A DNA stretch of 52,993 nt, from positions 69,058 through 122,050 of the IMG/VR virus record IMGVR_UViG_3300019845_000023; one strand, given 5' to 3'. The translations under genes and the position numbers were made by a program. Of this stretch, positions 19,034-52,095 are shown piece by piece; position 1 is the first letter of the stretch; each line of letters begins with the position of its first letter. The notes under the pieces were generated by a model that worked only from the letters and a program-made list of their open reading frames with translations, made no database searches and had not been told where the DNA came from. Source of the stretch: a virus (lineage: Duplodnaviria > Heunggongvirae > Uroviricota > Caudoviricetes).

Positions 19034-19339
19034 ATGAGCTGTATTAATTGTGAATATGCAAGAAGAGCAGAAAATAAAGAATATGTAGGTTGCTGCTTAC
19101 TTGTAAAACTTTCTTATGCGCATCCTGCGAGATTTGCTTATGAAGGCGACCAGTTATTTGACTTCTATGAAAAAGACAGTATATGTACTGGCTGGGTAAA
19201 TTTAAGTTATAGACCAGATGAAACAGGTAAAGAAGGAATGATAACAAACTATATTCCTTGTTTTAAGAAAGATGACGTTTGTAAACATTTTAAAGAAAAA
19301 GGATATACAGGAGGATTATTAGATGAGTATGATTATTGA
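19034..19339 (+). CDS. Cys-rich hypothetical protein, 101 aa
   Basis: AAGGAG RBS; CxxC...CC...C pattern. Confidence 0.7.
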   Translation: MSCINCEYARRAENKEYVGCCLLVKLSYAHPARFAYEGDQLFDFYEKDSICTGWVNLSYRPDETGKEGMITNYIPCFKKDDVCKHFKEKGYTGGLLDEYDY

Positions 19340-20453
19340 TGGTATCGACTTTGAAAATCTTGAGGCGGAGAAGTATTGGTCTTTCCCCAAGACATACAAG
19401 GGTGATAAGCAGGCGGACACCAAGAATATGATTATGTCTGGTAATTATATTGGTGCAGAGAAAAAGGACGGACATTATGCTCGTTTCATTAAGGATATGG
19501 ACGGCAATATGAGACTTCAGGGAAGAAGCGAGAGCGTAAATGGCGGCTATCTTAATAAGATAGAATGGGTTCCTCAGTGTCAGGATTTCTTCAACAGCCT
19601 TCCTAACGGAACAGTTCTTCTTGGAGAACTTTATTTCCCTACACAGCGCGGTTCTCGTAAGGTTACTACAATTCTTGGTTGTTTAAAGGATAAAGCTCTT
19701 GAACGTCAGGAGAAGGGCGAAAAGCTTCATTACTACGTTTTTGATATATGGGCATATAATGGTAAGTCTCTTCTTGATACTCCATTCCAGACAAGAATTG
19801 AGCAGTATCTTGATTATGAAATACTTGACCTTTTTAAGGGCGAAGATTATGTAGAAGATGCTTGCTACTATGAAGGACAGGAGCTCTGGGATAACCTCGG
19901 TAAGATTCTCAATGAAGGCGGCGAGGGAGTAGTAATTACTCAGAAAACTGCTAAGGCGGCACCAGGTAAGCGTACTGCTCGTAAGACATTAAAGGTTAAA
20001 ATGGAAATTGAGCAGACTATTGATGCTTTCCTTGACGGAAATTACAAGCAACCAACTCGTCTTTATAATGGTAAAGAAATAATGACTTGGCCCTATTGGG
20101 AGAACGAAAAGACTATGGAAAAGTCTAATATTAACCGTTACAAGGATTACAATGACGGACTTCCTTGGGTTCCTGTTACAAAGCCATATTACTATGGTTG
20201 GGCTTCTGCCGTATCAATTTCTGTTATGAAGGACGGTAAGCCATTCCATATTGGCTGGATAAGCGGTATTACAGATGAAATGAAGGAAGGTATTATCAAG
20301 ACTCCTGATAAGTATATCGGTAACGTTTTTGAAATAACCTGTATGGAAGTTGAGAAAATCGACGGCAATTATTCACTTCGTCACGGAAAGTTCGTTGCGC
20401 CGCGCCCCGATAAAAATGCTAAGGATTGCACCTTCGACCAAATAGACTCTTAA
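19323..20453 (+). CDS. ATP-dependent DNA ligase
   Basis: Motif I EKKDG, LGELY, YYVFDI, EGVV, LKVK, SLRHG; no TAG in 376 codons. Confidence 0.88.
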   Translation: MSMIIDGIDFENLEAEKYWSFPKTYKGDKQADTKNMIMSGNYIGAEKKDGHYARFIKDMDGNMRLQGRSESVNGGYLNKIEWVPQCQDFFNSLPNGTVLLGELYFPTQRGSRKVTTILGCLKDKALERQEKGEKLHYYVFDIWAYNGKSLLDTPFQTRIEQYLDYEILDLFKGEDYVEDACYYEGQELWDNLGKILNEGGEGVVITQKTAKAAPGKRTARKTLKVKMEIEQTIDAFLDGNYKQPTRLYNGKEIMTWPYWENEKTMEKSNINRYKDYNDGLPWVPVTKPYYYGWASAVSISVMKDGKPFHIGWISGITDEMKEGIIKTPDKYIGNVFEITCMEVEKIDGNYSLRHGKFVAPRPDKNAKDCTFDQIDS

Positions 20454-20495
20454 AAATCTATAAGAAGTTGAGTACGAAATCACTTAATCTTTAGA

Positions 20496-20525
20496 GGAGA
20501 GACTTTATGTCTCTCTATTTTTTTT
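20496..20525 (+). terminator. Intrinsic terminator after the ligase
   Basis: GAGAGAC-tttat-GTCTCTC followed by a long T-tract. Confidence 0.7.
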
Positions 20526-20540
20526 AAGAGGTGAGTGGTT

Positions 20541-21386
20541 ATGAAAGAGTATTTTCTAACTCCGATAGAAATTAAGGAGCCTCCACGTCATACACAGATT
20601 CATCCTCGTTGTTATACTTGTAAGAAATTCCCTGTTTGTAATCTTAGAGAAGATTACTTAAAAACTGCATTACTTATGCAGAGAATACTTGGTGACCCAT
20701 AGGACGATAGAGAATTGGGTTACTACAATAGCTCTTGGGGCAGAGTGCCTGGATACAAGGGCTATAATTTTGAAAACCCAGGCGAATACTTCCCAGAGAC
20801 TATTACAACAGAAAAGAATACTGGTACTTTCAAAGAAGCTAAGTACCGCAACAAAGATATAGTTCAGTTCATTTATGATATTGAAGGTTACTTTGTTTTA
20901 TTCAATGCTGTATATGATTAGGACGACGGAGTATTTGACTTCAGCGAAGGAAGGGAAATCTATTACGGATTAAAGTATACTCTTAGCGATGACTCTATGG
21001 TAGAGCTTGCCGTTGGTCTTGAATCTTGGCGTCTCGAAATGATAGCACACGAAGAGGATTCAAAAGATTTGGAGGTCATCAACACAACTTATTTCTCCGC
21101 AAAATTAGAATGTGATTTCTATGAATGGGAGAAAGGTTTGACAGAAGAAGAAGGAATCAAGCGTATGATTGCTTTCTTCCCTAACGGTATTCCTTGTAAG
21201 GATGGTACTTATTACCATTTAGCTACTTTCCACATTGAACCACATAAGGTTCCTTGCTATCACCCAGAAAACGGAAAAGTTGCATTTGCTCCTATGCCTT
21301 ATCCTGTATTTATTCCTCCAAGATGTAAAAAAGATTTACCTCGCCCACCAAGAAGAAGAGGCGACATTTGTGAATCAGATTTCTAA
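20541..21386 (+). CDS. Hypothetical protein, 281 aa (N-terminal CxxCxxxxxC)
   Basis: GAGGTG RBS; track ORFs 20715-20921 and 20997-21386 in frame; 2 TAG. Confidence 0.75.
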
Positions 21387-22253: not shown

Positions 22254-22254
22254 T

Positions 22255-22287
22255 AAAAGAGTGGCCACGGCGCCACTCTTTTTTTAT
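22255..22287 (+). terminator. Intrinsic terminator
   Basis: AAAAGAGTGGC-cacggc-GCCACTCTTTT plus T-tract. Confidence 0.85.
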
Positions 22288-22376
22288 ACTTTAACCTGAT
22301 TTTGATAAAATCATTTCTAATTTATTAGATGAACTTGTTGTCAATTTTACTTGTTATTACACTCCAAGTGAATAAT

Positions 22377-22405
22377 TTGACTTTTACAAATTTTTGGAGT
22401 ATAAT
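22377..22405 (+). promoter_or_regulatory. σA-type promoter of the nrd operon
   Basis: TTGACT-N17-TATAAT. Confidence 0.8.
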
Positions 22406-22442: not shown

Positions 22443-22661
22443 ATGGAAAGTATTACATTGTATTCAACAGGATGCCCAAAGTGTAATGTTCTTGAAAAGA
22501 AATTAACTGCCGCCGGCATTGAGTATGAGGTCGTAACTGACGAGAAAGTCATTGCAGATGTATGCGATACTATTGGTACAGATTTTCTTCCTATTTTGGA
22601 AGTAAATGGTGAATATTATGATTTTGCTGCGGCAATAACATGGGTAGGTGAAAGAAGCTAA
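22443..22661 (+). CDS. nrdH: NrdH-like glutaredoxin/redoxin
   Basis: LYSTGCPKC; about 72 aa; directly upstream of nrdD. Confidence 0.8.
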   Translation: MESITLYSTGCPKCNVLEKKLTAAGIEYEVVTDEKVIADVCDTIGTDFLPILEVNGEYYDFAAAITWVGERS

Positions 22662-24607
22662 TGCAGATAAATATTAAAGTTTCAAAGAATTTCACAACAT
22701 AGTGGAATAAATTACAGAATGAGTTCGGCACTCAACTTGCAGACTTAAATGGTTTTGGGGATGAATAGCTTTCTTACGGTGACTTCATTGATAATTTCGT
22801 TGATGTCCCCGTTGTTGCAGACAGCTCAATTGACTCAAACAGTAATGTAAGAAGAAAAGATATGGTAACTCTCCTTTCTGAAATGCCTAAGCCTCACAGA
22901 AAGCTTATGTCATTCCAGAAGATTTATTACGAAATGCAGAAGGAATATGGTTTTAAGGCTGCTAATGAGTGGTTGCGCCGCGATTGGATGGGAGAAATCT
23001 ATATGCACGATGCAGACACAGCAACATTCAAGTCCTATTGTTTTGCTTATGATTTAAAGGATTTGGCAGAAAAAGGACTATTCTTCCTTGGAGATACCTT
23101 CAATCCTAAGCCTCCTAAGCATTTGACTACTTTTGTTGATTTCGTAAAGGAATATATTAACTTTGCAAGCAATAGAACTTCAGGAGCCGTTGGCTTACCA
23201 AACCTTATTCCTTATATGTATTACTTCTGGAAGCAGGATTGGAACTGTGCTTATCTTGGTATGCAACAGTTTGAAGACTATGCAAAACAGAATATTCAGA
23301 GATTTATTTATGCTGTTAACCAGCCTTGCGTAAGAGATGGTCAGCAGTCAGCATTTACAAATACTTCTGTATTTGATAGAGAATATCTTATGGCGCTTTT
23401 CGGCGGTTCAGAGTTCCCAAATGGTGATATGATGGTTGACCACATTGAAGGAATTATGGATTTCCAAAAGATGTATATGGAAGTTATGGCAGACGTTCGT
23501 CACGAGAATATGTTCACTTTCCCTGTTTCTACCATGTCTATGGTAAGAAAGAATGGTAAGTTCCTTGACGAAGAATTTGCAGAATGGGCTATCAAGCATA
23601 ATATGCAATGGTCTGATAGTAACCTCTTTATTGATGATAACGTATCAAGCCTTTCTAATTGTTGCCGCCTTAAGAGCGATATTCGTGACCTTGGTTACTT
23701 CAACTCTATCGGTGGTACTGCATTGAAGGTTGGTTCTGTTAAGGTTAATACAATTAACTTAGCAAGACTTGCACTTGATACAAATACTAAGGAAGAATAT
23801 CTTGAAGAGCTTAAAGCAAGAATACTTTGTATTGTTCGTTCTCTTCATGTTGTTCGTCATATTATCAAGAGAGATGTCGAAAAGAAGCTTCTTCCGAATT
23901 TCTCTTATGGACTTATTGATTTCGAGCACCTTTACAATACAATCGGCTTCATTGGTATCTATGAAACTATGAAGAAGTTTGGTTGTACATATCAGGATAA
24001 ACTTGGTAATACATATTACACTCAGGAAGCCGCAGACTTCGGCGAGAAGATTTTCAATACTATTCGTGAAGTTGCAGACAATTTCCTTGAAGAGAATGGA
24101 TATGACTATAAGATAAACACAGAGCAAATCCCTGGTGAGAACGCCGCAGCCAAGCTGATGAGAAAGGATATGTTCTTCTATCCCGATGCTGACATTTATG
24201 ACTTACCTCTTTATGGTAATCAGTTTATGCCTCTTGGTATTAAGTCAACATTACAGGAAAGAGTTCGTGTTCAGGCTATGTTCGACGGCTTCTGTAACGG
24301 CGGCTCAATTCTTCACGCAAATATCGACGCTCCATTTAAGAACTATGAGACTGCAAGAAAGATGACAGAATATATTGCAGACCAGGGCGTTACATATTTC
24401 GCATTTAATACAAAGATACAGGCTTGTGAAGACAACCACGCTTTCTATGGTACAACTTGTCCTATCTGTGGTAAGCCTATTGCAACTGAGTACACAAGAG
24501 TTGTTGGTTTCTTAACTCCAATTAATACTTGGACAAGAGAAAGAAAGGCTGAATACAAGTTAAGAAAGTGGGAGCCTGTTAACGTAAACTTTGGAGATTT
24601 AATGTAA
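22661..24607 (+). CDS. nrdD: Anaerobic (class III) ribonucleoside-triphosphate reductase, 648 aa
   Basis: SNCCRL, TRVVGF glycyl-radical motif, CPICG; true start at 22661 (TAATG overlap) needs 2 TAG (codons 14, 36). Confidence 0.93.
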
Positions 24608-26669: not shown

Positions 26670-28532
26670 ATGAGCTACGGCGTAGAAGATATTAAATCAT
26701 TAAGTGCCGGCCGCGCTTTCAGAGAAAAGCTTGGTATGTACCTCTGTGGTGATAAGCAGAAGGCTATCAATCTTGGTTTGAGAGAGCTGGTAGTTAATGT
26801 ACAAGATGAATATGAAGTATATCAGCCTGCAAATCCTTATTGTAAGTTAACTCTTGACTCTAAGACAGGAATTATCAGATGTGAGGATAATGCGAGAGGT
26901 ATTCCAGTTGGTGTTCGTAGTGACGGCATAAACTCTTTAACTGCGGCATTTCTTATTCCCCATAGTGGTGGTAAGCACACCGAAGGAGCATACTCTTCAG
27001 CAGTTGGTATCAATGGTGAAGGTAATAAAATTGTTTGTCATACTGCGGAATGGCTTGAGGTTGAAGTCCACAGAGACGGAAACATTTACAAGCAGAGATT
27101 TGAGTCAGACGATGAGGGCGCACACCCTACTTCAGACGTTCAGATTATTGGTAAAGCAAATGATACTGGTACAATAATTACCTATAAACCAGACCCAAAG
27201 ATTTACGGAGATATTTTCATTGATACAGAGTCTTTTGAGGCGATGTTGAAGAATATGAGTCTATTCTCTAAGGGATTATCATTCATTTTCATCGTTGACG
27301 GCAAGGAAAAGACATTCTATTCTAAGAACGGTCTTATTGACGGTCTTAGTAAAGACAACGTTATGTTCCGTCCATTTTCATATTTTTATGAGACTCCCGA
27401 TTGTAAGGTTGAATTTGCTTTACAGTGGGTTACAAAGAAGGGTAATTTAAGAGGCTATGCTAACTCACTTTACGTTCCTAATGGCGGTAAGTTTATGAGT
27501 CAGTTTAAGTCCTCTCTTACAAGAACTTTTAATTCATTAGCTAAGTCTAAGTTTGAAGGTGAACAGATAAGAAATCTTCTTGACGGATTCGTTTCAGTTA
27601 AGGTTAAGGTAGGTCAGTGGTCTAACCAGCAGAAGGACTCACTTGAAAACCCTGAAGCTGGTACTGCGACATCAGCAGCTATATCTGCTTGCCTTAAGGA
27701 GTTCCAGATGGCTCGTCCAGAAGACTTCAATAAGGTTGTAGAGCTTTTAACTAAGCTTGATAAAGCAGACCGTGCCGCTGAAAGAGAACGTCAGAAGGTT
27801 CTTAACGCTGGTAAGGAAATTGAGAAAGAAACTAAGAAGAAATCAGTAATGGTTGATAAGCTTCTTGATTGTAGAAATCACGATGAAAATTCAATCATCT
27901 ACATCTGTGAGGGAGATTCTGCGCTTGGTTCTTTCACAAACTCTCGTGACAGTGAATATGTTGCCGCGATACCAGTTCGTGGTAAGATTATCAACGCATT
28001 GAAAAATGCACTTGATGAGGTACTTGAAAATCAAGAGGTTCAAGATATAGCTAAGGCTCTTGGCTGTGGAATCTTGGATAAGGTAAATTTAAAGAAACTC
28101 CGTTATGGTAAAGTTGCTATTGCGGCGGATGCTGACCCTGACGGTTTCGATATTGTATGCTTGCTCCTTGTATTATTCTATGTACTTATGCCAGAAGTTA
28201 TACAGGCAGGTAAGTTATATTGGGCACAGTTCCCACTTTACGAAGTAACTATTGGTAAAGAGTTAGTATTTGCATACGATGATGAAGAGCTCGAACAAAT
28301 AGTAGCAAAACATCCTGGTGCAGTCTATACTCGTAACAAAGGACTTGGTGAAATGGACCCCGATGTATTCGCACTTGCAGCTTATGGCGAAAACGCAAGA
28401 CTCATTCAATTTACTATTGAAGATGCTGAGGAGGCTGCTCGCATTCTCAATGTTCTTCTTGGTACAGAGAATGAAGAGCGTACAGATTACATTTTCAGCC
28501 ACGTTGATTTCTCTGTGGTTGATGGAGAATAA
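26670..28532 (+). CDS. gyrB: Type IIA topoisomerase (gyrase) subunit B
   Basis: GHKL motifs (DNARGIP, GINGEG), EGDSA, PVRGK, DADPDG, KGLGEM; no TAG. Confidence 0.93.
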   Translation: MSYGVEDIKSLSAGRAFREKLGMYLCGDKQKAINLGLRELVVNVQDEYEVYQPANPYCKLTLDSKTGIIRCEDNARGIPVGVRSDGINSLTAAFLIPHSGGKHTEGAYSSAVGINGEGNKIVCHTAEWLEVEVHRDGNIYKQRFESDDEGAHPTSDVQIIGKANDTGTIITYKPDPKIYGDIFIDTESFEAMLKNMSLFSKGLSFIFIVDGKEKTFYSKNGLIDGLSKDNVMFRPFSYFYETPDCKVEFALQWVTKKGNLRGYANSLYVPNGGKFMSQFKSSLTRTFNSLAKSKFEGEQIRNLLDGFVSVKVKVGQWSNQQKDSLENPEAGTATSAAISACLKEFQMARPEDFNKVVELLTKLDKADRAAERERQKVLNAGKEIEKETKKKSVMVDKLLDCRNHDENSIIYICEGDSALGSFTNSRDSEYVAAIPVRGKIINALKNALDEVLENQEVQDIAKALGCGILDKVNLKKLRYGKVAIAADADPDGFDIVCLLLVLFYVLMPEVIQAGKLYWAQFPLYEVTIGKELVFAYDDEELEQIVAKHPGAVYTRNKGLGEMDPDVFALAAYGENARLIQFTIEDAEEAARILNVLLGTENEERTDYIFSHVDFSVVDGE

Positions 28533-28604: not shown

Positions 28605-30995
28605 ATGAAGATAATTTCTAAAGAAATTCGAGAAGCTGTACCTGAAGCTTATCTTCCTTTCAGTGCTTATGTTATTCAGACAAGAGCATTACCTGATGCT
28701 CGTGACTGTTTAAAGACTGGCGGTAGATATATTCTTTGGTCACAGTATCTCCAAAAGAACACTTATGATAAAAATAGAAAGAAAGGTCCTGACGTTGTTG
28801 GTCCTGTATCACACTGGAATCCACACGGTGATGCAGGTATTTGGGATAATATCGTAAGATTTGCAAAGCCATTCTCTATGAGATATTGTCTTGAAGATAC
28901 AAAGGGAAATGTCGGCTCTATGAGACTCGGTAAGGACCACGCAGCTCCCCGTTATCTTGAACTTCGTAGCTCAGAAATTGCAAATGAGTTTACAAAGCTC
29001 ATTAAAAAAGATGCGGTAGAACATTGGAAGTTAAACTATTCTGGTGAAGATAAATACCCTTCCGTATTCCCAACTTTATTCCCTAACTTTGTAAATGGTA
29101 ATACTGGTATTGGTGTTGGATGTGCAAGTAGTATCCCTTGCTTCAATCTATCTGAAGCCATTAATTCTTTGAAGATATTGGTTAATAATAGAGACGCAAG
29201 CTATGATGAGATTTATATTGCACCTGACTTCCCTACTGGAGCTACAATTATAAATGGTGAAGCTGTAAAGGAATCATTACGTACTGGCCGCGGCAGAGCA
29301 GTAAAGCTCAGAGCAGTCATTGAATATGATGAAACAAAGAATGAACTTGAAATTCAGCAAGTACCATATCAGGTTTATACTGGAAGAGTTACTAAGCAGA
29401 TTGAAGAAGCAATAGCTGAAGGTAAGTTGCTTGGTATCAAGAGCTTCTATGACGGTACTGATAGGTCTTGTGGTAAGTATGGTACTAAAATTATAATTAC
29501 TTTAAATAAAGGAACTAATGTTAAGCAGTTAGTTCGTCAGCTTTATAAGGAAACTTCACTTCAATCTACTTTTACTGTTTGTCAGCTTATGCTTGAAAAT
29601 GGTACAAAGCCAAAACAGTATGGTTTGAAAGAAATGATGTTGGCATACCTTGACCATGCTATGGACTGCTTAAAGCGTTCTTATATCTTTGATTATAATA
29701 AGGTTAAGAAAACTCTCAATATCAAAGAGGGTTATCTTATAGCGATTGCTCACATTGATGAAGTTGTCCAGTTAATCAAATCTGCTGAATCAGAAGCTTC
29801 ACTTATCAAGACTTTTGAGGATAAATATGGTCTTAATGAAGAACAATCTAAGGCTATTATTGACCTTAAGTTAAGAAGCTTAATGAAATTAGAGCATATT
29901 AAGATTGAAAAGGAACTTGAAAAATTAAGAATTGAAGCTGAAGGACTCGATACTCTTATTAATGATGAGGCCGCTTTTAAGGCAGCATTTATCGCAGAGC
30001 TCGACAGAATTGATAAGAAGTGGGGAGACTCTCGTAGAACTACTGTACTTAATCTCAATTGTGATGATGAAAAGGAAGATGCAGAGCCTATCGAGAAGAA
30101 GGAACTTCTTATATACTACACTAATCTTGGCAACATTTATACCGTAGAAAGCTCTACTCTTATGAAAACGCGCCGCGGTGGCAAGGGTTCTAAGATTAAG
30201 ATGGCAGATAATGAAGCAATCGTCAAGACAATTAATGATGACAACTTTAGCTCATTAATGATATTCTCTAACCTTGGACAGGCATATGCGTTGTCTATTG
30301 ACGACCTTCCTGTAAATTCAAAGGTTAATGTAGCACAGCTATTCGATTTCAAACCTGACGAAAAGCCTACAACTATTACCTCAGTAAATCGTAGAAACGG
30401 TATCGAATACTATGTCTTTGTAACTAAGAACGGTATGATTAAGAAGACTGCGGGCGAGGAGTACAACTTTAAGAGAGGTAAGGCTCTTAAGGCAATCAAT
30501 CTTAAAGACGGCGATGAAGTTGTAAATGTTCTCTTTATGAAGAACGAACAAGTCGGAATCTTGACAAATAACGGAAATTTTGTTAAAATAAATACAGAAG
30601 ATATAAATGCAATAGGAAGAGCAACAGCAGGTGTCAAGGCTATTAAGCTTAATGACGATGACTATGTAATTGACGCAAAAATAATCGACGAAAAGGATAA
30701 GTATATGATTACACTTTCTGAACGTGGCTTGATTAAGAAAGCTTCTATGAGCGAGTTCCCAGTTTGTGGCCGCCCCATCAAGGGTAAGAAGATTTCTGAC
30801 ACAAGAGACGGAGACAAAATAGTCAAATTCTTGACTTTAAATGAAGAAAGTGATATAATAATTATAGTAAAACGAAAGAACATAAAAATATCAACTTCTG
30901 AGTTAAGAGAGCTCACTCGCAATGCTACTGGCGTAAAAGCTATAAACATTGATGAAGGCGACATAGCTTCAGATTTAGTGAGGGGATAGGAATGA
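28605..30995 (+). CDS. gyrA: Type IIA topoisomerase (gyrase) subunit A, 796 aa
   Basis: RALPDARD, HPHGD-like NPHGD, catalytic AAPRY, beta-pinwheel repeats, TRRGGKG GyrA-box-like motif; apparent TAG stop at 30987 reads on to TAG-GAA-TGA, giving an ATGA overlap with the next gene. Confidence 0.93.
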
Positions 30996-37708: not shown

Positions 37709-38775
37709 GAATTGATTTAAAGAAAGTTGAACAGGAGCTAACTCCAGAAAGAATCATTGAGCTGGTAACTGGCCTCGGTGCTGACAGATATGAAGAGAAA
37801 AATGATTACATAATCTTTCCGACTATCTGTCATAACGAGGAAGCCTCCGAAGCAAAAATGAAATTATATTACTATAAGCGTAATCATAAGTTTCATTGTT
37901 ATACAGATTGCGGAGAGAATTTTAACATCTATCAGCTTTTTGAAAAACGTTATGAGCTTCTTGGAATTGAATACGATTTCTATAAAGATATTGTATTAAA
38001 AATAGTTGACGGTATCAGCTTTCATCAATTCCAAGATGGATTTGGTTCTAAATATAAAAGTCTTGAAGATAGATATACAAGACAAGAAACTATCGTTGAA
38101 ATAAAACCCATTAAGAAAAGTTTATTAAATATATATAGTTTCTACGCAACTGTAGAATGGTTGAATGATGGTATTAGCGAAGAAGCTATGAAAGTATTTA
38201 ACATTCTATATGATGTTATTCATAATAAAATAATTATACCACATTATGATGAAAATGATGAGTTAATCGGTATAAGAGGCCGCGCCCTCAATGATGAAGA
38301 TTTGGTATATGGTAAATATATGCCAGTATCAATAGAGGGAAAAATATATGCCCATCCTCTCGGTTATAATCTTTATGGCTTGAATATGAATAAAGAGAAT
38401 ATCCGAAAGAAGAAAATGGCAATTATATTTGAAGCTGAGAAATCAGTTCTTCAATATGAAACTATGTACGGACGTGAAAATAATATTGCAGTTGCAGTAT
38501 GTGGTAGTTCAATTTCATATTATCAAATGCAATTATTATATGACCTTGGTGTTGAAAGAGTAATCGTAGCTTTTGACAGCCCTTCAGTTATTAACTGGGA
38601 GGAGCTGGATAAACATTACAATAAACTGAAGAAGTTATGTGAAAGATTTGTATATAAGTGTAGAATGGGATTTGTTATTGACTATAAGAATATCCTCGGT
38701 GCGAAAGATAGTCCTACTGATTTAGGCAAGACCGCGTTTGAGGAAATTATGAAACGCCCGATTTGGCTAAATTAA
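37705..38775 (+). CDS. dnaG: DNA primase (Zn-finger plus TOPRIM)
   Basis: TICHN...FHCYTDC; IIIPHYD...IRGR; FEAEKS; VAFD; no TAG. Confidence 0.88.
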   Translation: MRIDLKKVEQELTPERIIELVTGLGADRYEEKNDYIIFPTICHNEEASEAKMKLYYYKRNHKFHCYTDCGENFNIYQLFEKRYELLGIEYDFYKDIVLKIVDGISFHQFQDGFGSKYKSLEDRYTRQETIVEIKPIKKSLLNIYSFYATVEWLNDGISEEAMKVFNILYDVIHNKIIIPHYDENDELIGIRGRALNDEDLVYGKYMPVSIEGKIYAHPLGYNLYGLNMNKENIRKKKMAIIFEAEKSVLQYETMYGRENNIAVAVCGSSISYYQMQLLYDLGVERVIVAFDSPSVINWEELDKHYNKLKKLCERFVYKCRMGFVIDYKNILGAKDSPTDLGKTAFEEIMKRPIWLN

Positions 38776-38786: not shown

Positions 38787-40586
38787 ATGAAGTATATAAG
38801 AAAGACAAGTAAAGATATAACTCATGACTTCTTATCTGAATTACTTGCAGATAGAAATATGAATTTTGGTGAGAACCCCACCTTATTCTTCCATCCAAGC
38901 TGGGAAAATGAACTTCCCTCAACAGATTTGGATAATATATAGGAAGGTTATGAGTTACTTAAGAAGCACATACATAATGGTAGCAAGATGTTCATATGCG
39001 TTGACTCAGACGTTGATGGATTTACAAGTGCCGCCTTAGTATATTGTTTCTTGATGAATACTTACGGAGTTAAGTATTAGATTTCAATTGACTATCACGT
39101 TCCTGAAGGAAAGGAGCACGGACTTCGTACTCTTATGGATATGTTCACAAAGGAGAAGATTTGTGACTTAATCATACTCCCCGATAGCTCAAGTAATGAC
39201 TATGAGGAACATAAGATATTGAAGGATATGGGATATGACATTCTTGTACTTGACCACCACGAAGCTGACCATTATAGTGAAAATGCAATCGTTATTAACA
39301 ATCAGCTTTCAAAGAATTATGAGAATAAGTCTTTAAGTGGTGTAGGAGTTGCATATAAATTCCTTGAATATTTTGAACACGCTTTTGAAAGTGATTTAAT
39401 TTCTACTATGGGTGAAGAAGGAATATATGAAGCAGAAGGCTGGGAACCTCATATTCAGGATTATATTGACCTTGTAGCACTTGGAGAAATAAGTGATATG
39501 ATGAATATGAATACTCTTGAAAATCGTTGGTTCTGTGAAGAAGGACTTTCTCATATAAACAATGGTTTCTTTAAGGAACTTGTTACAAAGCAGTCATACT
39601 CATTGGGTGACGGTCCACTTACACAAATTGGAATTGCTTTCTATATAACACCACTTATAAACGCTTTAATCAGAGTTGGCTCTGACTTAGAGAAGGAAAG
39701 ATTATTTGAAGCATTTCTTATGCCAGAGAAGATAGTTCCTTCTACAAAGCGTGGAGAAAAGGGACAGACTGAAACTCTTGCAACACAGAGTGCAAGAAAT
39801 TGTGTAAATGCTAAGTCCCGTCAGAAGCGTGAAATGGATAAGGCAACTCAGTTACTTGATGTGCAGATTATTAACAATGACCTTGATAATAATAAAATCC
39901 TTATTCTCAATGCAGATGACTTAAATGTTTCAACAACATTAACTGGTCTTTGTGCTATGAACGTTGCAGCTGCACATAAGAAGCCCGTTATGTTGGGAAG
40001 AATAAGTCCTGATGGATATTTAAAAGGTTCAATTAGAGGCCGCGGCGAGTCAGAGTTAAAGGACTTCAGAGCTTTCCTTCTTGAAAGTGGTCTTATGGAT
40101 TACGTAGAAGGACACGGTAATGCCGCAGGCTTCAGCATTAAGCAGTCAAATGTTGATAAACTTACTGCATATGCAAATGAGAAGTTGAAGGACATTAACT
40201 TTAATGAAGGATACTATGAAGCTGATTTCGTAGTTCAAGGCAACTGTTCATATCTTGCTGATATGATTATAGACCTTGAAAGAGGACGTTCTCTTTGGGG
40301 TCAGCAGAATGATGAGCCTATTATCATTGTAAAGGATATTACACTTGATGTAAAGGACATTCAGGCAATCGGCTCTTATAAGGATACATTAAAGTTTTCT
40401 TTCAATGGAATAACATATGTTAAGTTTAAGGCTAAGGCTTTACTTGATGAATTATTCTTGAAGAGCGGCAAGATAAATATCACAATTGCAGGCCGCGGCA
40501 ACATAAATAATTGGGGCGGTAAGTCAACCCCACAGATTTTACTTGATGAAATGGAAATCAAGGAGTGTAGTGAGGAGGACTTTTAA
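38787..40586 (+). CDS. recJ: RecJ-like DHH/DHHA1 ssDNA exonuclease, 599 aa
   Basis: DSDVDG motif I lies between two TAG (codons 52, 98); LDHH, SGVGVAYK, GSIRG, GHGNAAG. Confidence 0.92.
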
Positions 40587-42431: not shown

Positions 42432-45400
42432 ATGAGCTTAAATGATATACCTCGTTTTGATACCCACTCTCATAGTGAGTATAGTAATATTCGTTTAATT
42501 GACTCAATCAATAAGATACCAGATATGATTAAGACAGCACATCGTCTTGGAATGAAGGGTATTGCATTGACTGACCACGAATGTGTCAGCGGTCATTTAA
42601 AGTGGTTACAGACAGAAAAGAAGTTAAAAGAAAAGGGAGAGATACCCGAAGATTTCAAGTGTGCGTGCGGTAATGAGATTTATCTCGTTGATGACAGAGC
42701 AAACATTGAAAGATACTGGCACTATATCTTAATTGCGAAAAATGCAGATGGACATAAGGCAATCAGAGAATTAAGTTCTACCGCTTGGTATCACAGTTTT
42801 ACCTCTCGCGGCATGACAAGAGTTCCGACAGAAAAGAAAGAACTTGAAGCAATAGTTAAGAAGTATCCTCATTCTCTTATTGCAACAACTGCTTGTATTG
42901 GTGGACAGCTTGGAGGAAGAGTTCTTCAATTAGTAAAAGCTGAAGACCACGGCGATATGGAAGAAATTATCCGTTGTAAGCAGGATATAGATGCCTTCAT
43001 TAGATGGAATCTTGAACTATTCGGTGATGATTTCTACATTGAGGTTGCTGCCGGTCAATCAAAAGACCAGATTAGATTTAATAAGAGAATTGCCTCAATA
43101 GCTAATAATTATTTGGTAAGAATGGTAATCGGTTCAGACGCACACTATCTTACTGCGGCAGAACGTCCTCTTCACAAGGCTTATCTTAATTCAAAGGAAG
43201 GCGACCGTGAGGTTGATGAGTTCTACTTTGATGCTCATATGATGGATAATGAAGAAGCCTTTGGAAATCTTCAAGTTGCTTTCTCAGAGGAAGACTTTGG
43301 TCAAATGTGCGTAAACTCAATGGAGATTTACGATAAGATTGAGCCATTCAGTCTTGAACATACATCAATTATTCCAGAGGTTGAGGTAAGAGATTATCCA
43401 CAAATCTTCTCTCCTTATGGAGATAAATATCCAGTAATAAATGGATTATTTATGAGTAATGACATTCAAGAAAGATATTGGATAAATGAGTGTATACAGG
43501 CGCTTATTAATAAGCGTTTAATCACAGAGCCGGAATATCTTGAAAGACTTGAAATAGAAGCTGATGTTATTAAGACAATCGGTGAAAAGCTTAATGATTG
43601 TTTGTTTAAATACTTTAATACCTTCCAGCATTTCATTAACTTGTTCTGGGATTGCGGTTCAATCGTAGGTCCTGGACGTGGTTCAGCAGTATGTTTCCTT
43701 TCAAACTACTTACTCGGTATCACTCAGCTTGACCCATTAAAGTGGGGACTTAAGTATTGGCGTTTCCTTAATAAAGAACGTGTTGAGTTACCTGATATTG
43801 ATATTGACCTTTCTCCTTCAAAGCGTAAGAAAATCTTTGAAGCAATCCGTAAAGAACGTGGTGAGTTAAACGTTATTCAAGTTTGTACTTTCGGTACAGA
43901 AGGAACCCGTTCAGCGATTGCCGCGGCAGGACGTGGTTATCGTTCAGAAGCATATCCTAATGGACTTGAAGTTGAAACTACTCAATATCTTAGTGGTCTT
44001 ATTCCACAAGAACGTGGCTTCTTATGGTCAATTCACGATGTCGTTTATGGTAATCCTGAGAAGGGTAGAGCTCCTATTGGAGCATTTATCGCTGAAGTAG
44101 AGAAGTACCCTGGTCTTCTTGAGATTATTGAGTCAATTGAAGGACTTGTAAATAAAAGAGGTCAGCACGCTTCTGGTGTTATTCTTTATAACACAAATCC
44201 TTGCGATACTGGTGCGATAATGAGAAGTCCTAACGGAGACCTTACAACTCAGTTCTCACTTCACGAAGCTGAGGCAATGGGCGACGTTAAATATGACTTC
44301 CTTGTAACTGAAATTTGTGATAAGATAACAACTTGTATCGAACTTATGCAGAAGGACGGTATTGTTGAAAAAGACTTATCATTAAGAAATATTTATGACA
44401 AGTATCTCCACCCATCTGTATTAAATCTTGAAGATAAGAGAATGTGGGACGCTCTTGGACAGGGAACTGTTCTTGATGTATTCCAGTTCAGTACAGGTGT
44501 TGGTCTTGCAACTGCAAAGCAGGTTAAGCCTCAGAATCCAACCGAAATGACTTCAGCAAATGCGATAATGAGACTTATGGGAGAAAGAGGAAAAGAAAGA
44601 CCACTTGATAGATATTGCCGTCTTAAGGAGGATATTGGTCAGTGGTATAAAGAAGCAAGAGATAGAGGACTTAGCGAAGACGAAATAAAAATCCTTGAAC
44701 CATACTACTTGCCTCGTTTTGGCGTTCCTGCACTTCAAGAAGACCTAATGGAGATTTGTATGGACGACAAGATTGCACACTTCTCATTAAAAGAAGCTAA
44801 CGCGGCACGTAAAACTGTTGCGAAAAAGCATATGGAAGAAATTCCTGCACTCCACGATAAGTTCGTTGATGCTTGTCCGAATAAGAATTTCGGTGATTAC
44901 GTTTGGGAAACTACAATGGGTCCTCAGATGGGTTACTCATTCTCACTTCCTCACTCACTTGCATATTCATTCGTTGGTATTCAAACATTATACTTAGCAA
45001 CAAATTATCCCGCTATCTATTGGAACTGTGCTTGCTTAATTGTTAATGCCGGCGGTGCAGATTTGTTAGATACAGACGACGTTGATACAGATGCTGAAGA
45101 GACAGACACAACAGTCAAGAAGAATAAGAGCGTAAACTATGGTAAAATAAGTGCCGCCATAGGAGATTCTAAGACACGAGGAATTACTGTATTGCCGCCA
45201 GATATAAATGAGTCAGACTTAATCTTCAAGCCTGAGTTAAAGCGTAATGCTATCATCTATGGTATGAAGGGAATTAATCGTATAGGCACAAAACTCGTTT
45301 ATGAGATTTTCAATAATCGTCCTTACACAAGCATTGAAGATTTCTTATCAAAGGTTAAGGTAAATAAGCTGCAAATGTTCTCACTTATAAAGGCGGGAGC

Positions 45401-46352
45401 TTTCGATGAACTTTGCGGAGACAGAGTCGAAGCAATGACTAACTACATTAATGGTATAGCAGACCAGAAGAAGAGAATAACTCTACAGAATATGCAGATG
45501 CTTATAGCTCAGAATATGATACCAGCAGAATTAGACTTTGAAAAGAGATTATTCAATTTCAACAAGTATATCAAGGTTTCTAAGGACGGAACTTACTACT
45601 ATCTTGATGAAATTGCGATGCCATTCTTCGAAGCAAATTATGATACAAATAAGATAGAAGAAATCGTTGTAACAAATGACGGTCCGAAGGGCAAGATTAA
45701 AATGACTACTTGGGAGTCAATCTATAAGAAAGGTATGGACCCAGTAAGAGATTGGATGAAGAAGAATCAGCAGGACATTCTTAATGAACTTAATCGCCGC
45801 CTTGTTCAAGAGGTATGGGATAAGTATGGTAAGGGTTCAGTAGCTGATTGGGAAATGGATAGCTTAGGCTTCTACTACCACGACCATCCACTTGCTAATT
45901 TAAAGGACGATATATATAGTATCGCTGATTTTAACGACCTTTCTCCTGAGCCAGAAGTAGACCGTTGCTTTACTACAAAAGACGGTTCAGAGATTAAGAT
46001 GTTCAAGATATATCGTATCGCAGGAACAGTAATTGATAAGGATAAGAATAAGAGTTCAGTAATGTTATTAACTCCGTCCGGTGTTGTAACTGTTAAGGTT
46101 TGGAAGAACCAGTTCGCTGCTTGGGATAAGCAAATTTCTGAGCGCGGCGCAGATGGTGTAAAACACGTAGTTGAAAAGTCTTGGTTCAGTCGTGGTAATA
46201 AACTTATTATAACAGGCATAAGACGTGATGACACATTCATTCCAAAGAAGTATAAGAATACTGAATTTGATATATTCGAGAAGATAATCAAAATGGACGA
46301 GAAAGGATTTATCTTAGAGTCATTAACTGAAAGACCAGAGGTAGATGAATAA
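42432..46352 (+). CDS. dnaE: DNA polymerase III alpha subunit (DnaE type, intact-looking PHP domain)
   Basis: HSHSEYS, LTDHE, SDAHY, GPGRGSA, PDIDID, GQHASG, GYSFSLPH; no TAG in 1306 codons. Confidence 0.95.
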   Translation: MSLNDIPRFDTHSHSEYSNIRLIDSINKIPDMIKTAHRLGMKGIALTDHECVSGHLKWLQTEKKLKEKGEIPEDFKCACGNEIYLVDDRANIERYWHYILIAKNADGHKAIRELSSTAWYHSFTSRGMTRVPTEKKELEAIVKKYPHSLIATTACIGGQLGGRVLQLVKAEDHGDMEEIIRCKQDIDAFIRWNLELFGDDFYIEVAAGQSKDQIRFNKRIASIANNYLVRMVIGSDAHYLTAAERPLHKAYLNSKEGDREVDEFYFDAHMMDNEEAFGNLQVAFSEEDFGQMCVNSMEIYDKIEPFSLEHTSIIPEVEVRDYPQIFSPYGDKYPVINGLFMSNDIQERYWINECIQALINKRLITEPEYLERLEIEADVIKTIGEKLNDCLFKYFNTFQHFINLFWDCGSIVGPGRGSAVCFLSNYLLGITQLDPLKWGLKYWRFLNKERVELPDIDIDLSPSKRKKIFEAIRKERGELNVIQVCTFGTEGTRSAIAAAGRGYRSEAYPNGLEVETTQYLSGLIPQERGFLWSIHDVVYGNPEKGRAPIGAFIAEVEKYPGLLEIIESIEGLVNKRGQHASGVILYNTNPCDTGAIMRSPNGDLTTQFSLHEAEAMGDVKYDFLVTEICDKITTCIELMQKDGIVEKDLSLRNIYDKYLHPSVLNLEDKRMWDALGQGTVLDVFQFSTGVGLATAKQVKPQNPTEMTSANAIMRLMGERGKERPLDRYCRLKEDIGQWYKEARDRGLSEDEIKILEPYYLPRFGVPALQEDLMEICMDDKIAHFSLKEANAARKTVAKKHMEEIPALHDKFVDACPNKNFGDYVWETTMGPQMGYSFSLPHSLAYSFVGIQTLYLATNYPAIYWNCACLIVNAGGADLLDTDDVDTDAEETDTTVKKNKSVNYGKISAAIGDSKTRGITVLPPDINESDLIFKPELKRNAIIYGMKGINRIGTKLVYEIFNNRPYTSIEDFLSKVKVNKLQMFSLIKAGAFDELCGDRVEAMTNYINGIADQKKRITLQNMQMLIAQNMIPAELDFEKRLFNFNKYIKVSKDGTYYYLDEIAMPFFEANYDTNKIEEIVVTNDGPKGKIKMTTWESIYKKGMDPVRDWMKKNQQDILNELNRRLVQEVWDKYGKGSVADWEMDSLGFYYHDHPLANLKDDIYSIADFNDLSPEPEVDRCFTTKDGSEIKMFKIYRIAGTVIDKDKNKSSVMLLTPSGVVTVKVWKNQFAAWDKQISERGADGVKHVVEKSWFSRGNKLIITGIRRDDTFIPKKYKNTEFDIFEKIIKMDEKGFILESLTERPEVDE

Positions 46353-47299
46353 TGATTATCGGTTTATATGATATAGATTTGTGGCACCGTGGACGTGCGG
46401 TGCCCAATCTTGAATTAATGCAATACTACGCCTATTATCATAAAAGAAATGATAGAGTAGTTTTGATGAAGCCAACTGATGAAGAAAGTCAGTTTGCAAA
46501 GATAATTTATTTCAAAGAAAACCCTAATGTACTACTTCCAAAGACTTTATAGGTTTTCGGAGATAATAAAGAATTTACTGGATATGGCTTTTATAAGAAA
46601 AATGAAAAGCTTCCACCAGAGATTGAAGTGCCGCCTTCCTATGTTCCATATGACCCTTGGGTTAATAAACTTGGAATTTCTGCGGCAGAGTTTGAAAAAA
46701 TGAAACATAATAGCTATGTAAGAATTGAAACAGAAAACTTCGTAGACTTTAAGAAAGATGCAATGCACATTTATATAGCAGATAAAGACCCTCTCAATGT
46801 GAAAGGAGCTCTCGATTTTATTGATGAACATAAGAATAAACGTTTCAACTTTTTACACACGCCAATCTTAAATGATGAAGCAACTGCTTTGAGCTTTATG
46901 CGTTATCGAGCACTTTTTAATAAGAACTGTGTGATTAATTTCCACTGTTCTGAAGATTTCTTCTGTGATTATTATGAGTCAGTTATTTTCAAACTGGATA
47001 AATTTGATAAAGAAACTGAAGAACAATATCAAAAGAGAATTGCTAAAATGGCGATTTGGTATAAAGGTCATAATGCCGCATTGAGATTTCCTTATAACGT
47101 AAAATACTCGCCGTTTACCGAGAAGATTATTATTTGGGCAAAAGATAATAGTGCTAAGGATTCATTCGCAACATTTTACCAATCTTCTAAGATAACTCAA
47201 AAAGAACTCGCCACCCTACCATCTGGATTGAGATTACTTCTCAAACAAAATCCTAAAACGGCAACACGTCAAAGTCTTGACTTAAAATCATCTTTATGA
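46352..47299 (+). CDS. Degenerate phage radical-SAM-like protein, 315 aa
   Basis: IGLYDID...PNLELM..AYYH N-terminus resembles phage Fe-S oxidoreductases, but no CxxxCxxC; one TAG at codon 67. Confidence 0.6.
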
Positions 47300-47305
47300 T
47301 ATAAT
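47277..47305 (+). promoter_or_regulatory. σA-type promoter
   Basis: TTGACT-N17-TATAAT with TG extension. Confidence 0.8.
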
Positions 47306-49053: not shown

Positions 49054-49059
49054 TGCCAT

Positions 49060-49797
49060 GTGGCAGGAAAGCTTAAGTATGAAGATATAAAATAGGATAT
49101 AGAAAGTAGCGGTTGGCAATTATTGTCAACCGACTACGTTAATCTGAAAACAGATTTAGAGTTGAAATGTCCTGAAGGACACTTGAACTATGTATCCTAT
49201 GAGAAATGGCGCCGCGGCACGCATGAATGTCCAATTTGTAAGGAGAATAAATATTACCATACAGATAATATAGCCGTTAAAAAAACAGGTTTCAGAATAC
49301 TTGCTTTTGACCAAGCTTCAATTACATCTGGTTGGTCTGTATATGACGGAGATAAAATGATTAAATATGGGCATTGGACATCTGATGGCGCACATAGTAC
49401 AGAGCGTATAGCTTAGACAAAATAGTGGGTAGTTTCTATGATTGCTAAATGGAAACCCGATAAGGTAATTTTTGAGGATATTTAGTTATAGACATATAAG
49501 AAGAACCCACAGGAAGTCATTGAAATGGTTACAACATTTAAAAAGCTCGCTCATTTACAAGGAGTTCTTAAAAACTATTGTTATGAAAACGGCATTTTGT
49601 ATAAAATCGCCGCACCTGCAACTTGGAGACATCACTCTTAGGTAAAGGGTAACAACAGAACCGACCAAAAGAAAAGTGCTTAGCTAAGAGTTAAATCAAT
49701 CTATGATATTAGTGTATCATAGGATGAGGCAGATGCTATATTAATTGGTCGCTGGGCTGCATATGATTAGAAAGCAAATGAGATAATTGAGTTCTAA
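49060..49797 (+). CDS. ruvC: RuvC-like Holliday junction resolvase with N-terminal Zn-ribbon, 245 aa
   Basis: CPEGH...CPIC; ILAFDQAS...GW; FEDI[Q]L[Q]; LAHLQG; [Q]DEADAILIG; 9 TAG. Confidence 0.85.
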
Positions 49798-49806
49798 GGT
49801 GATATA

Positions 49807-50184
49807 ATGATAATATAGAGAAATACTTTGCCGATATTATCAAATATCTTTTCAAGAATTTCTGATACTAAATTTGATATAAATACTTAGTATAAGCTCT
49901 TAAAAATAAAGAAAGCGATTGAAGAAGAAGAAGAACTTTATTTAACTTAGTTAGATAGACTTCAAGAATATTGCTTAAGAGATGAGAATGGAAATCTCAT
50001 TAAAAATGAAGATGGCGGATATGCAATTGATACAGAAAAAGCTCAAGAATGTGCTGATATTGTAAAAGAAATAAATTCAATTCAAATACAAATACCAGAT
50101 ATTCAATTCAGTCTTGATGAACTTGCACCGCTTCAATTAACTTTTAAGGAGTTAGAAGTTCTTGACCCATTTATAAAAATATAA
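49807..50184 (+). CDS. Hypothetical protein (DUF1617-like), 125 aa (absent from ORF track)
   Basis: AAGGTG RBS; YKLLKIKK...RDENGNLI...G pattern; 3 TAG; ends at the terminator. Confidence 0.7.
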
Positions 50185-50221
50185 AAAGAAAGAGGTAAGA
50201 TTTATCTTACCTCTTTTTTAT
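50184..50221. terminator. Bidirectional terminator between convergent modules
   Basis: AAAGAGGTAAGA-ttta-TCTTACCTCTTT with an A-tract before and a T-tract after. Confidence 0.88.
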
Positions 50222-52095
50222 TAGTATTGGGATGTAATTCCAAAATATTCTTCTATTGTAGTATTCTTTAATTTATTCGCCCATTCAGTTCCTACATAAC
50301 GAACGTGCCAAGGCTCATAAATATATCCAGTAATACTATCTTTTCCATATGGATAACGTATGATAAATCCATATTCATGACAATGCTAAGCAAGCCACGC
50401 AGATTGATTTGGATATCGAGCAACATATCCAGTTTGTGAATCTGAACTTGCTGATGTTATATCAATCGCATATCCAGTATGATGTTCTGAATAGCCTGGT
50501 CTTGCTGAATATGTATCTCTTGTACTTGAAGGATAGCTATTGTAAATAGACTACTAATCAGAATAAGAACGATAGCCGCCGGTTCCATATAGACTTCCTC
50601 CGGATACAGACATCGGCTCATTACGAATATTATGCTAACTTGCATAAGCTTCCCATCCAGCTTTAAGACTATTATATGCTGCAATTGTTTCACTTCTTAA
50701 TCCACCGACAGCAGAAATCGCCGCCTAAGTCATTGGATAGGATTTATTGACAACAATCAATCCATCGAAATAATGACAGCCGCCCCTCTCTTCATGAGTA
50801 TGAGTCTCTTCATTTGGAATAACAGCAGGATTTGGCTCTCTTCTTGTCTAATCCATATCCCAGTTGGTAGTAAATATCGTATAATACAATCCAGGTAAGA
50901 ACTCTACAACTGTAGCCAAATTAATAATCGTAGCTTCACCTGGCACTGGAGTAGGTCCACTATGATTATTCTAAAATGGACAAGCCTAAAAACCTTCTAT
51001 AGTATGTGCCTAAGTTAAACCATAAGCAGGTCCATATCTAATGTTTTTATAAATTGTCTGTGCTTTTTCTAAATCCCAGTCAGATTTCTACTAAGACTCA
51101 GTAATAACATTATATGAGCCCCATCCTCTTTCTTGCCACCAACGGCAAAATGTTTCCAAAGTTGAACCCTCAGCTCTATAATTATAGGCAGTCTGGTAAT
51201 CAGTTGGAGAACGATATAATATAGTTGCTCTCAATAATTTAGCATATGAGATACCTTCTTCTCCCTCTCCAAATTCGTGAGTACATATTAAATAAGCCAT
51301 CTTTAGTCCTGGGTTAGTACTTAAAGTAGTTAAAGAATCTGGATAAGCTCCCATAAAGGCCTCAGACATTGATAATGAACCATATGAATCGCCATACTCA
51401 GGTACCATTGTTCCTCCCATTGCATTATTGCAAGAAGTTGGGTCATACTCAATACCACCAGGAGGCGGCGTATCAGAGTCACCCTGAATTTTAATATATA
51501 CTGGTTCCTAACTAAAAATAGCATATCCAAGTCTATCTCCAACAGCTTGACCTGCACAAGTTTTACTGCTGTATTCTGCATATGCCGCGGTACCAGTTCT
51601 TATTAATGGTTTAATATCAAGATGTAAATGAACATACTATCCAACAGGACCATCGAACCATTCACTTCCTTCTGTATGTCCGCTACAACCCATACCACCA
51701 ATAAGCTATCCTTTTTTAACTTTATCACCTATGTGCAAAGTAGGGAACTAAGGGTATTCAGATGGATTTACAAGATGACAATGATATATAATTAAATCTC
51801 CATCCAGAATCCCACTTGACTAAGATAATGTATTTTCAGCTAAAATAGTAATATCATTACCACCAGCATAACTTGTATCATATTGAGTAGAGCCATGATT
51901 ATAATGGACATTTGTGACTTCTCCATCACACATGGCGTATATTGGAGTACCAAGTCTATCTCTATAATTATCTGAAGTAGCTATATCCAATGGAGTATAA
52001 CCATGTCCACTATATGTTGTTATAAATCCAGTTGCCTTTGGGGCATTTAACCCCAAAGGATGGACAAAATATTGATTTAAATCTATTTCAGACAT
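50221..52095 (-). CDS. Multi-domain peptidoglycan hydrolase: M23 peptidase, putative SleB-like middle domain, VanY/M15B peptidase; 624 aa
   Basis: M23: PIYAMCDG.V, VKKG[Q]LIG, HLHLD; M15B: GYRSYSD[Q][Q], SARPGYSEHHTG.AID, YEPWHVRYVG; 16 TAG; ends TAA. Confidence 0.88.

Follow-up and report, generated by a model that had tools for sequence, protein, structure and literature searches.

In gut phages that read TAG as a sense codon, use of the alternative code has been linked to the timing of infection. In eight clades, Borges et al. (bioRxiv 10.1101/2021.08.26.457843) found the alternative code in structural and lysis genes and, variably, in the replication machinery; early genes and code-change genes kept the standard code, suppressor tRNAs were present and close relatives used the standard code. 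Their model is a time-dependent change from the standard to the alternative code during infection. Code 15, in which TAG encodes glutamine, is known from the crAss-like, Lak, Garnet, Amethyst, Jade, Sapphire and Topaz gut phages (bioRxiv 10.1101/2021.08.26.457843; Yutin et al. 2021, PMC7886860). We analysed in-frame TAG codons in a 52,993-nt stretch of phage DNA (the window, bases 69058-122050 of one viral contig of 122,050 bp, IMG/VR record IMGVR_UViG_3300019845_000023). A sequence-only reading of the window had proposed that TAG usage is graded by gene function as part of a translational switch between early and late genes, and that this matches a published hypothesis for recoded gut phages. 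Our results agree with Borges et al. on the latter point, and the phage is a further lineage fitting the known timing pattern of TAG recoding. The reading that we favour, with a probability of about 0.68, is that TAG is kept out of genes expressed while suppression is absent or incomplete, and that late genes would be translated once the suppressor dominates.

Like the code-15 gut phages, the studied phage (G000) has TAG concentrated in structural and lysis genes and variably used in replication genes, early genes in the standard code, a phage-encoded suppressor tRNA and a close standard-code relative. Unlike them, it belongs to a different lineage: by DnaE its nearest cultured phages are Enterococcus phages of the Schiekvirus type and Bacillus SPbeta, at about 40% identity, and a megablast search of GenBank phages with 13 kb of the window returned no match, so that G000 has no close relative in culture. 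The report on phAss-1 (proposed Phassvirus) describes an uncultured human-gut phage of about 136 kb with TAG in 41 open reading frames (ORFs), including hallmark genes, and with several suppressor tRNA genes (Babkin et al. 2023, PMC10607447). G000 can be likened to it, by that description only, as a large TAG-recoded gut phage with suppressor tRNAs. Bovine gut metagenomes hold related sequence (about 0.3 of words shared in a sequencing-run search), the Shine-Dalgarno motifs and promoters are of the sigma-A/Bacillota type, and we consider G000 to be a large phage that probably comes from the bovine rumen or gut and infects a member of the Bacillota. The contig is linear and about 81% complete (CheckV). 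Four relatives, G001-G004, all whole IMG/VR genomes, were used for comparison.

TAG encodes glutamine and is graded between gene blocks

The phage decodes TAG as glutamine via two tandem phage tRNA-CUA genes. Code 11 fragmented the large minus-strand genes at 325-16639 and 50221-52991, and reading TAG as sense restored ORFs of 1183, 1120, 880, 709 and 624 codons. Coding density rose from 0.70 under code 11 to 0.81 with TAG as sense, and showed no gain when TGA or TAA was read as sense. At 16 of 29 conserved-context sites the residue opposite a G000 TAG in the orthologue from G004 was glutamine, followed in frequency by lysine and glutamate. Both TAG codons of the anaerobic ribonucleotide reductase NrdD stood opposite glutamine in the 78%-identical G004 orthologue, as did both TAG codons of an 89-aa ORF in its orthologue. 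The tRNA-CUA genes (genome 51724-51879, minus strand) lie inside the almost TAG-free early block and are similar to phage tRNA-Gln genes, including the U1 start. Three relatives (G001, G002 and G003) are TAG-recoded and carry one tRNA-CUA gene apiece. G004 (167,201 bp, loci L054-L062) uses the standard code, has no tRNA-CUA gene and ends 24 of its 180 genes with TAG; its DnaE is 74% identical to that of the window, and it served as a natural control for the recoded genomes.

Genes were called with a simple read-through caller and their starts refined by Shine-Dalgarno motif. The contig divides into four blocks that differ in internal TAG density. Early block A (genome 1-69307, minus strand, 103 genes) has 0.6 internal TAG per 1000 codons and holds RNA ligases, a polynucleotide kinase, a Ro-like protein, ThyA, a helicase, HNH nucleases and all tRNAs. 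Late block B (325-16639, minus strand, 11 genes), with fibres, holin and endolysin, has 11.6 (61 internal TAG in 5265 codons). Block C (16697-49053, plus strand, 34 genes) is devoted to replication and nucleotide metabolism and has 2.3 (23 internal TAG in 9876 codons, with 19 of the 34 genes TAG-free); it encodes dNMP kinase, RNase H, ligase, NrdD, topoisomerase II subunits B and A, a Sak4-like ATPase, PhoH, a DnaB-like helicase, primase, a RecJ-like exonuclease, DnaE, a ClpP-like protein and dUTPase. Late block D (49060-52993, 4 genes: RuvC, orf125, the VanY hydrolase and an end-cut large ORF) has 25.6. No capsid, portal or terminase genes were present on the contig, which stops inside the large TAG-rich ORF of block D and lacks the entire head, portal and terminase module of the relatives; the main structural genes therefore do not enter into the gradient described here.

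The ten TAG counts given in the sequence-only reading were all reproduced with an ORF list in which TAG is read as glutamine. Six genes, all on the plus strand, contained no TAG: those for the DnaE-type DNA polymerase III alpha subunit (42432-46352, 1306 codons, 0 of 37 glutamine-type codons), the GyrB-like topoisomerase II subunit (26670-28532, 620 codons), the ATP-dependent ligase (19323-20453, 376 codons), primase (37705-38775, 356 codons), PhoH (33945-35207, 420 codons) and the Sak4-like AAA ATPase (32918-33892, 324 codons). A TAG at 19320-19322 lies just upstream of the ATG of the ligase gene, a start supported by a ribosome-binding site. At the pooled late rate of TAG/(TAG+CAA+CAG), 0.41, the probability of finding no TAG was 3e-9 for DnaE and 4e-5 for GyrB. 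The VanY/M23-like cell-wall hydrolase (50221-52095, minus strand, 624 codons) carried 16 TAG, a 1183-aa ORF (1428-4979, minus strand) 13, the RuvC-like Holliday-junction resolvase (49060-49797, plus strand, 245 codons) 9, including one in its final 12 codons, and the Amidase_2 endolysin (11305-12540, minus strand) 5. The interval originally given for the pattern, 19323-52095, leaves out the 1183-aa ORF and the endolysin.

The TAG-free list was correct for the six genes named and also selective, as other genes of replication and nucleotide metabolism carry TAG. In the DnaB-like replicative helicase (36014-37708, plus strand), which matched phrog_19 over residues 10-507, codons 3 and 116 are TAG, the latter opposite glutamine or glutamate in orthologues. 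NrdD (22661-24607, plus strand) has TAG at codons 14 and 36, and the RecJ-like exonuclease (38787-40586, plus strand), whose profile match spans residues 1-593, at codons 52 and 98. The dNMP kinase carries two, and the dUTPase and the ClpP-like protein one each. Nearly all TAG of the replication genes fall inside orthologue or PHROG alignments. The proposal that the core replisome could be made at once is therefore not borne out, since the helicase itself carries TAG and RecJ and NrdD have two homology-supported codons each.

Two further features of the TAG codons were noted. Eight genes have a TAG no more than 12 codons before the next TAA or TGA, with sites at window 30987-30995 and at genome 16669-16974, 17944-18693, 48722-48970, 55149-55742 and 60435-60767; these may be residual stops with short read-through tails, and several orthologue alignments stop at the TAG. 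In G000-G003, T precedes 54% of sense TAG compared with 41% of CAA/CAG, and C and G are halved (p = 5e-14), which may reflect a mutational context effect or avoidance of CTAG.

Base composition, ancestry and selection

The sequence-only reading had proposed third-position AT content as a check on the gradient, and the gradient survived it. The confound is real: the late blocks are the most AT-rich, and across all genes the TAG fraction correlates with GC content at third codon positions (GC3) at rho -0.44, as expected if the TAG fraction simply tracked local composition. We fitted a per-gene binomial model of TAG against CAA+CAG with gene class and GC3 as terms. Class given GC3 had a likelihood ratio (LR) of 63.6 (2 degrees of freedom), and GC3 given class an LR of 0.6; none of 500 permutations within GC3 quintiles came up to the value observed. 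When genes were binned by matching GC3, the TAG fraction was 0.41-0.42 in late genes, 0-0.11 in replication genes and 0-0.03 in early genes, a gap that persisted at more than 5-fold. No class by itself gave a significantly negative correlation of TAG with GC3: rho was -0.09 for the early class, 0.05 for the replication class and +0.48 (p = 0.07) for the late class.

A leucine analogue led to the same result. The choice between TTG and CTG involves the same first-position C/T change as that between TAG and CAG, and TTG/(TTG+CTG) was 0.60 in block A, 0.85 in block C, 0.88 in block B and 0.90 in block D, a spread of just 1.5-fold. The corresponding TAG/(TAG+CAG) values were 0.03, 0.12, 0.60 and 0.83, giving observed/expected TAG of 0.05, 0.14, 0.68 and 0.92. 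Out-of-frame TAG trinucleotides differed less than 3-fold between blocks. Blocks A and B show a 19-fold gap in TAG density despite a common strand and skew, which excludes strand asymmetry as the cause. Composition does not account for the gradient. A purely compositional origin is refuted by the leucine analogue, by the GC3-matched classes and by RuvC, which combines replication-type GC3 with late-type TAG use (see below), and we regard it as scarcely credible.

The same block pattern was found in the three TAG-recoded relatives. In their orthologues TAG density was 0.95-3.2 per 1000 codons for replication genes and 7.4-14.4 for late genes, orthologue densities correlated across genomes (rho 0.42-0.67), and DnaE was TAG-free in all four recoded genomes. 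Individual TAG sites were seldom common, with only 3-4 of 39 common to G000 and G001. We then compared codon exchanges in the close pair G002/G003, classing genes by the TAG status of the G001 orthologue, which is an independent criterion. Where the G001 orthologue was TAG-free, exchanges between CAA or CAG (CAR) and TAG stood to CAA<->CAG exchanges as 4:47, and where it was TAG-rich as 29:30. The contrast (Fisher P = 2e-6) amounts to about 11-fold suppression in the TAG-poor class at similar overall codon divergence, and thus TAG is actively excluded from that class and exchanged freely in the TAG-rich class. Ongoing selection maintains the gradient.

These comparisons also bear on a mosaic origin, by which TAG-free blocks would have been newly taken from standard-code phages and not yet have built up TAG. 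The blocks do differ in GC3 (0.39 early, 0.32 replication, 0.19-0.20 late) and a standard-code relative exists within the clade. However, TAG is scarce in the same blocks of four genomes, although their orthologues share only 30-76% identity, and the TAG-poor class is rich in CAA<->CAG and poor in CAR<->TAG exchanges at equal codon divergence, which makes such an origin highly improbable.

Codon usage also differs by module apart from TAG. The GC3 of block B is 0.19, and CAG is preferred to CAA in early genes and CAA to CAG in late genes. Outside the window, the contig has a tmRNA gene and all of its 49 tRNA genes. With this tRNA array and its distinct late codon usage G000 resembles the T4-like phages with large tRNA arrays discussed in Borges et al.; unlike codon timing in those phages, the codon in question here would be a stop for the host, so that its effect would be all-or-none per codon and not a change in rate.

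Promoters, the RuvC unit and the genes that carry TAG

The contig contains 43 perfect extended -10 sigma-A-type promoters of the form TTGACW-N17-TGNTATAAT, compared with 0.05 from shuffles, and all 43 are co-oriented with the local genes. We call them host-type as a sequence proxy. They are divided between blocks A (34), C (8), B (1) and D (0). The eight of block C have their -10 ends at 19002, 26638, 30859, 31435, 31523, 35267, 42187 and 47305 on the plus strand. The sole perfect promoter of the late blocks (7527-7555, minus strand) overlaps a strong bidirectional intrinsic terminator at 7543-7571, and about seven would have been expected in these 20 kb (Poisson P ~0.007). The relatives show the same pattern, with no perfect promoter in the 43-kb structural module of G001. 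TGATATAAT was found upstream of 62 of 213 TAG-free genes and of only 2 of 53 TAG-rich genes. As far as the proxy holds, host-type promoters would thus be a TAG-independent marker of early versus late genes that agrees with the TAG classes. Unlike the named code-15 gut phages, G000 has an unusually sharp set of perfect promoters from which its temporal classes can be read. A search for a late-promoter motif by k-mer enrichment upstream of late-type genes gave just the Shine-Dalgarno motif, and GCGCCG/CGGCGC sites showed no enrichment by block. The tRNA-CUA pair has one of the perfect promoters about 95 nt upstream of it, which would place the suppressors in the regulon of the host RNA polymerase, as the published model requires.

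The last host-type promoter of block C (TTGACT-17-TGATATAAT, 47277-47305, plus strand) heads a unit of orf60, the ClpP-like gene, dUTPase, RuvC and orf125 (49807-50184, plus strand, phrog_1401, 3 TAG). The unit ends at a strong bidirectional intrinsic terminator between convergent units (50186-50219, a 15-bp stem with a T run on both strands), and no terminator was found between this and the promoter. RuvC starts with GTG 6 nt past the stop codon of dUTPase. Because it lacks a Shine-Dalgarno motif as well, its translation is probably coupled to that of dUTPase. Its GC3, 0.32, is that of the replication genes, and its TAG fraction is 0.62 compared with 0.08 in dUTPase just upstream. Across the 6-nt gap, within one predicted operon, TAG density rises about 10-fold, from ~4 to ~37 per 1000 codons. 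The claim that TAG usage is graded by function thus holds as to the gradient, but temporal module fits better than function, since RuvC is a DNA metabolism gene that is TAG-rich in a host-promoter operon. Early RuvC would plausibly be harmful before packaging, since a resolvase cuts branched DNA.

A second candidate of this kind was found in the relatives. The first gene of the structural module in G001-G003 (L045:3376-4590 in G001) encodes a protein of 394-404 aa that matched a PHROGs sigma factor family (phrog_5767, E = 4e-20). It contains 6, 6 and 7 TAG in G001, G002 and G003 and none in G004, and it has 685 homologues. Upstream of it, G001, G002 and G004 have a promoter of the form TTGACT-17-TATAAT or TATACT; in G003, where the gene call was over-extended, none was found. 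Pfam, NCBIfam and PDB sequence searches were all negative. The AlphaFold model had a pLDDT of 80; Foldseek gave no PDB match at E <= 0.001, and with VIA-align residues ~254-354 repeatedly matched sigma region 4 with middling Z scores (5.7-6.4). The evidence for a sigma-factor identity of this regulator-like gene is suggestive. The gene is not on the G000 contig.

Both genes bear on the possibility that suppression rises during infection but that late TAG is only neutral drift, through AT-biased change of CAG to TAG, and hence a footprint of timing without a switch. In favour of such passive tolerance, late TAG/(TAG+CAG) reaches 0.68-0.92 of the leucine analogue and is not above neutrality, TAG sites turn over fast between G000 and G001, the base after in-frame TAG (+4) in G000-G003 is the same as after CAA/CAG (p = 0.45), and host-type promoters are lacking in the late blocks, whose timing could thus be set by transcription alone. 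Against it, RuvC and orf125 with their 12 TAG stand behind a host-type promoter without an intervening terminator, RuvC being apparently coupled to dUTPase, and the regulator-like gene of the relatives has 6-7 TAG in three of them, with a sigma-A-type promoter in G001, G002 and the TAG-free G004. Passive tolerance shares the temporal premise of the reading that we favour and differs from it on adaptiveness alone; we consider it unlikely.

The other late genes of the window also carry TAG. In block B, all on the minus strand, ORF709 (5057-7186) has 9, ORF1120 (7580-10942) 17, the holin-like gene (10935-11258) 1 and the 880-aa tail-fibre gene (13398-16040) 4; ORF367, ORF92, ORF227 and ORF94 have 3, 3, 4 and 2. 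The first gene of the block, for a small HPr-like protein whose NCBIfam matches were below cut-off (16340-16639), has 1. A large ORF cut off by the end of the contig has 6 in its 3' part (52101-52991, minus strand), and it is an orthologue of virion-module proteins of 1653-1942 aa in the relatives. The labels given earlier to DnaE, topoisomerase II, ligase, primase, PhoH, RuvC and the endolysin were backed by PHROGs or Pfam, which also named the B and A subunits of topoisomerase II, the Sak4-like ATPase and the holin-like protein. For the hydrolase the VanY domain was firmly supported (103.6 bits), but the M23 part scored 25.1, below the Pfam cut-off of 28.7. The 1183-aa ORF has no family match, and its putative label of fibre comes from its size and neighbourhood. 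The ORFs of 1183, 709, 1120, 367, 296 and 227 aa matched no Pfam or PHROGs family, and a fibre role was verified only for the 880-aa protein.

Three internal TAG occur in just one gene of the early block, which codes for a GIY-YIG homing-endonuclease-like protein (genome 61932-62963, minus strand). The counts in its orthologues are 7, 2 and 2, and it parallels the recoded intron endonuclease of Borges et al. (bioRxiv 10.1101/2021.08.26.457843).

Proposed read-through of TAG in the course of infection

According to the reading that we favour, infection would begin under the standard code of the host. From strong promoters of the sigma-A type, host RNA polymerase would transcribe the genes for the suppressor tRNAs together with the early block and the majority of replication genes, and purifying selection would keep TAG from genes needed before suppression is full, with replication genes tolerating no more than one or two TAG, placed close to the 5' end. 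When the suppressor has come to dominate, read-through would be nearly complete, and in the late phase TAG would behave as an almost neutral synonym for glutamine in the tail/fibre, holin, endolysin, VanY hydrolase and RuvC genes. Since yield would fall as p^n with n TAG, this would produce a steep threshold of suppressor activity, in effect a translational lock on late proteins. The code, the tRNAs, the gradient with its independence of composition and its conservation, the selection and the promoter map are shown by the data: selection bars TAG from early-translated genes, and TAG is neutral in late-translated ones. What we infer from these patterns is the time course of suppression, a host that treats TAG as stop, and a use of the lock in regulation rather than mere tolerance of it, in other words the switch itself.

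The position of TAG within genes is consistent with translation under incomplete suppression, in which early aborts are cheap. In block C, the first half of the gene holds 22 of the 23 TAG, and the mean relative position is 0.22, compared with 0.42 under a null in which TAG is drawn from the gene's own glutamine-type codons (P < 1e-5). In the late blocks TAG is spread uniformly along genes (mean 0.47). The confinement of replication-gene TAG to 5' halves is not stated in the recoded-phage literature examined.

The same bias would fit a constant, partial suppression with no temporal change, in which TAG is avoided where truncation or lower yield costs most, for example in catalytic replication proteins, and 5' positions lower the cost of premature termination. 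In the late module of the relatives, TAG counts are 1, 0 and 0 (G001-G003) for the putative major capsid protein and 0-1 for it and its neighbour, which hints that expression level matters within the late class. However, ORFs with 13-17 TAG here, and one with 85 in G001, the largest load among the relatives, need near-complete read-through, and efficient constant read-through would leave the 20-fold depletion across 103 early genes and the 11-fold suppression of exchanges without a cause. Abundant structural proteins should moreover shun TAG more than enzymes do, and the reverse is seen. We consider constant suppression improbable, and argue from the TAG-laden ORFs together with the early depletion that read-through efficiency changes during infection.

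A further reading would give TAG a more active part. The number and position of TAG codons would form a graded, ultrasensitive translational timer laid over host-promoter transcription, with the change of code, in place of a transcriptional cascade, as the master late trigger. Genes without TAG would be expressed immediately, sigma-A replication genes with one or two 5' TAG would be delayed or throttled with cheap aborts, and RuvC with its nine TAG would be locked until suppression is near-complete, the sigma-like regulator with 6-7 TAG being the parallel in the relatives. We offer this reading as a whole only tentatively, and hold it to be possible but doubtful.

Several points weigh against the reading that we favour. 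The absence of any TAG excess over the leucine analogue in late genes (0.68-0.92) leaves selection for TAG as a regulator unsupported; with late TAG at or below neutrality, purifying selection in early and middle genes together with late drift suffices. The promoter of the tRNA-CUA pair is itself of the early type, so that any delay would have to come from accumulation of the tRNA. The late genes are contiguous, which confounds function with genome position, and the gene calls come from a simple, unbenchmarked caller of our own. The 5' bias is weak in G002 (P 0.01-0.03) and G003 (P 0.02-0.13) and absent in G001, and so is no clade-wide rule. Release factor families PF00472 and PF03462 had no match in G000-G004 with positive controls, and no tRNA synthetase genes turned up in the five genomes, in which no dedicated synthetase search was made. 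G000 therefore differs from the Jade-type phages with a 'code-change module', which comprises a release factor and/or synthetase beside the suppressor tRNA. Finally, the host would have to read TAG as stop, and its code is assumed to be standard. Indirect pointers to this are the kinship of DnaE with those of Enterococcus and Bacillus phages, the sigma-A/Bacillota promoters and Shine-Dalgarno motifs, and the use of TAG as a stop in G004.

Stop-codon recoding as a timing device in phages is a published hypothesis. The present analysis adds its controls and a map of promoters, together with the case of RuvC and the bias of TAG towards 5' ends; the latter two were not found in the literature examined, although their novelty is unproven. 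The leucine analogue, the GC3-matched classes and the comparison of CAR<->TAG with CAA<->CAG exchanges part selection from composition and are usable on any recoded phage clade. For such contigs, annotation under code 11 breaks up precisely the tail, lysis and host-range genes. With recoded and standard-code sisters that have orthologues, promoters readable from the sequence, the jump in TAG at RuvC and a TAG-laden regulator-like gene, this clade is an unusually clean system for a direct test of stop-codon recoding as phage timing.

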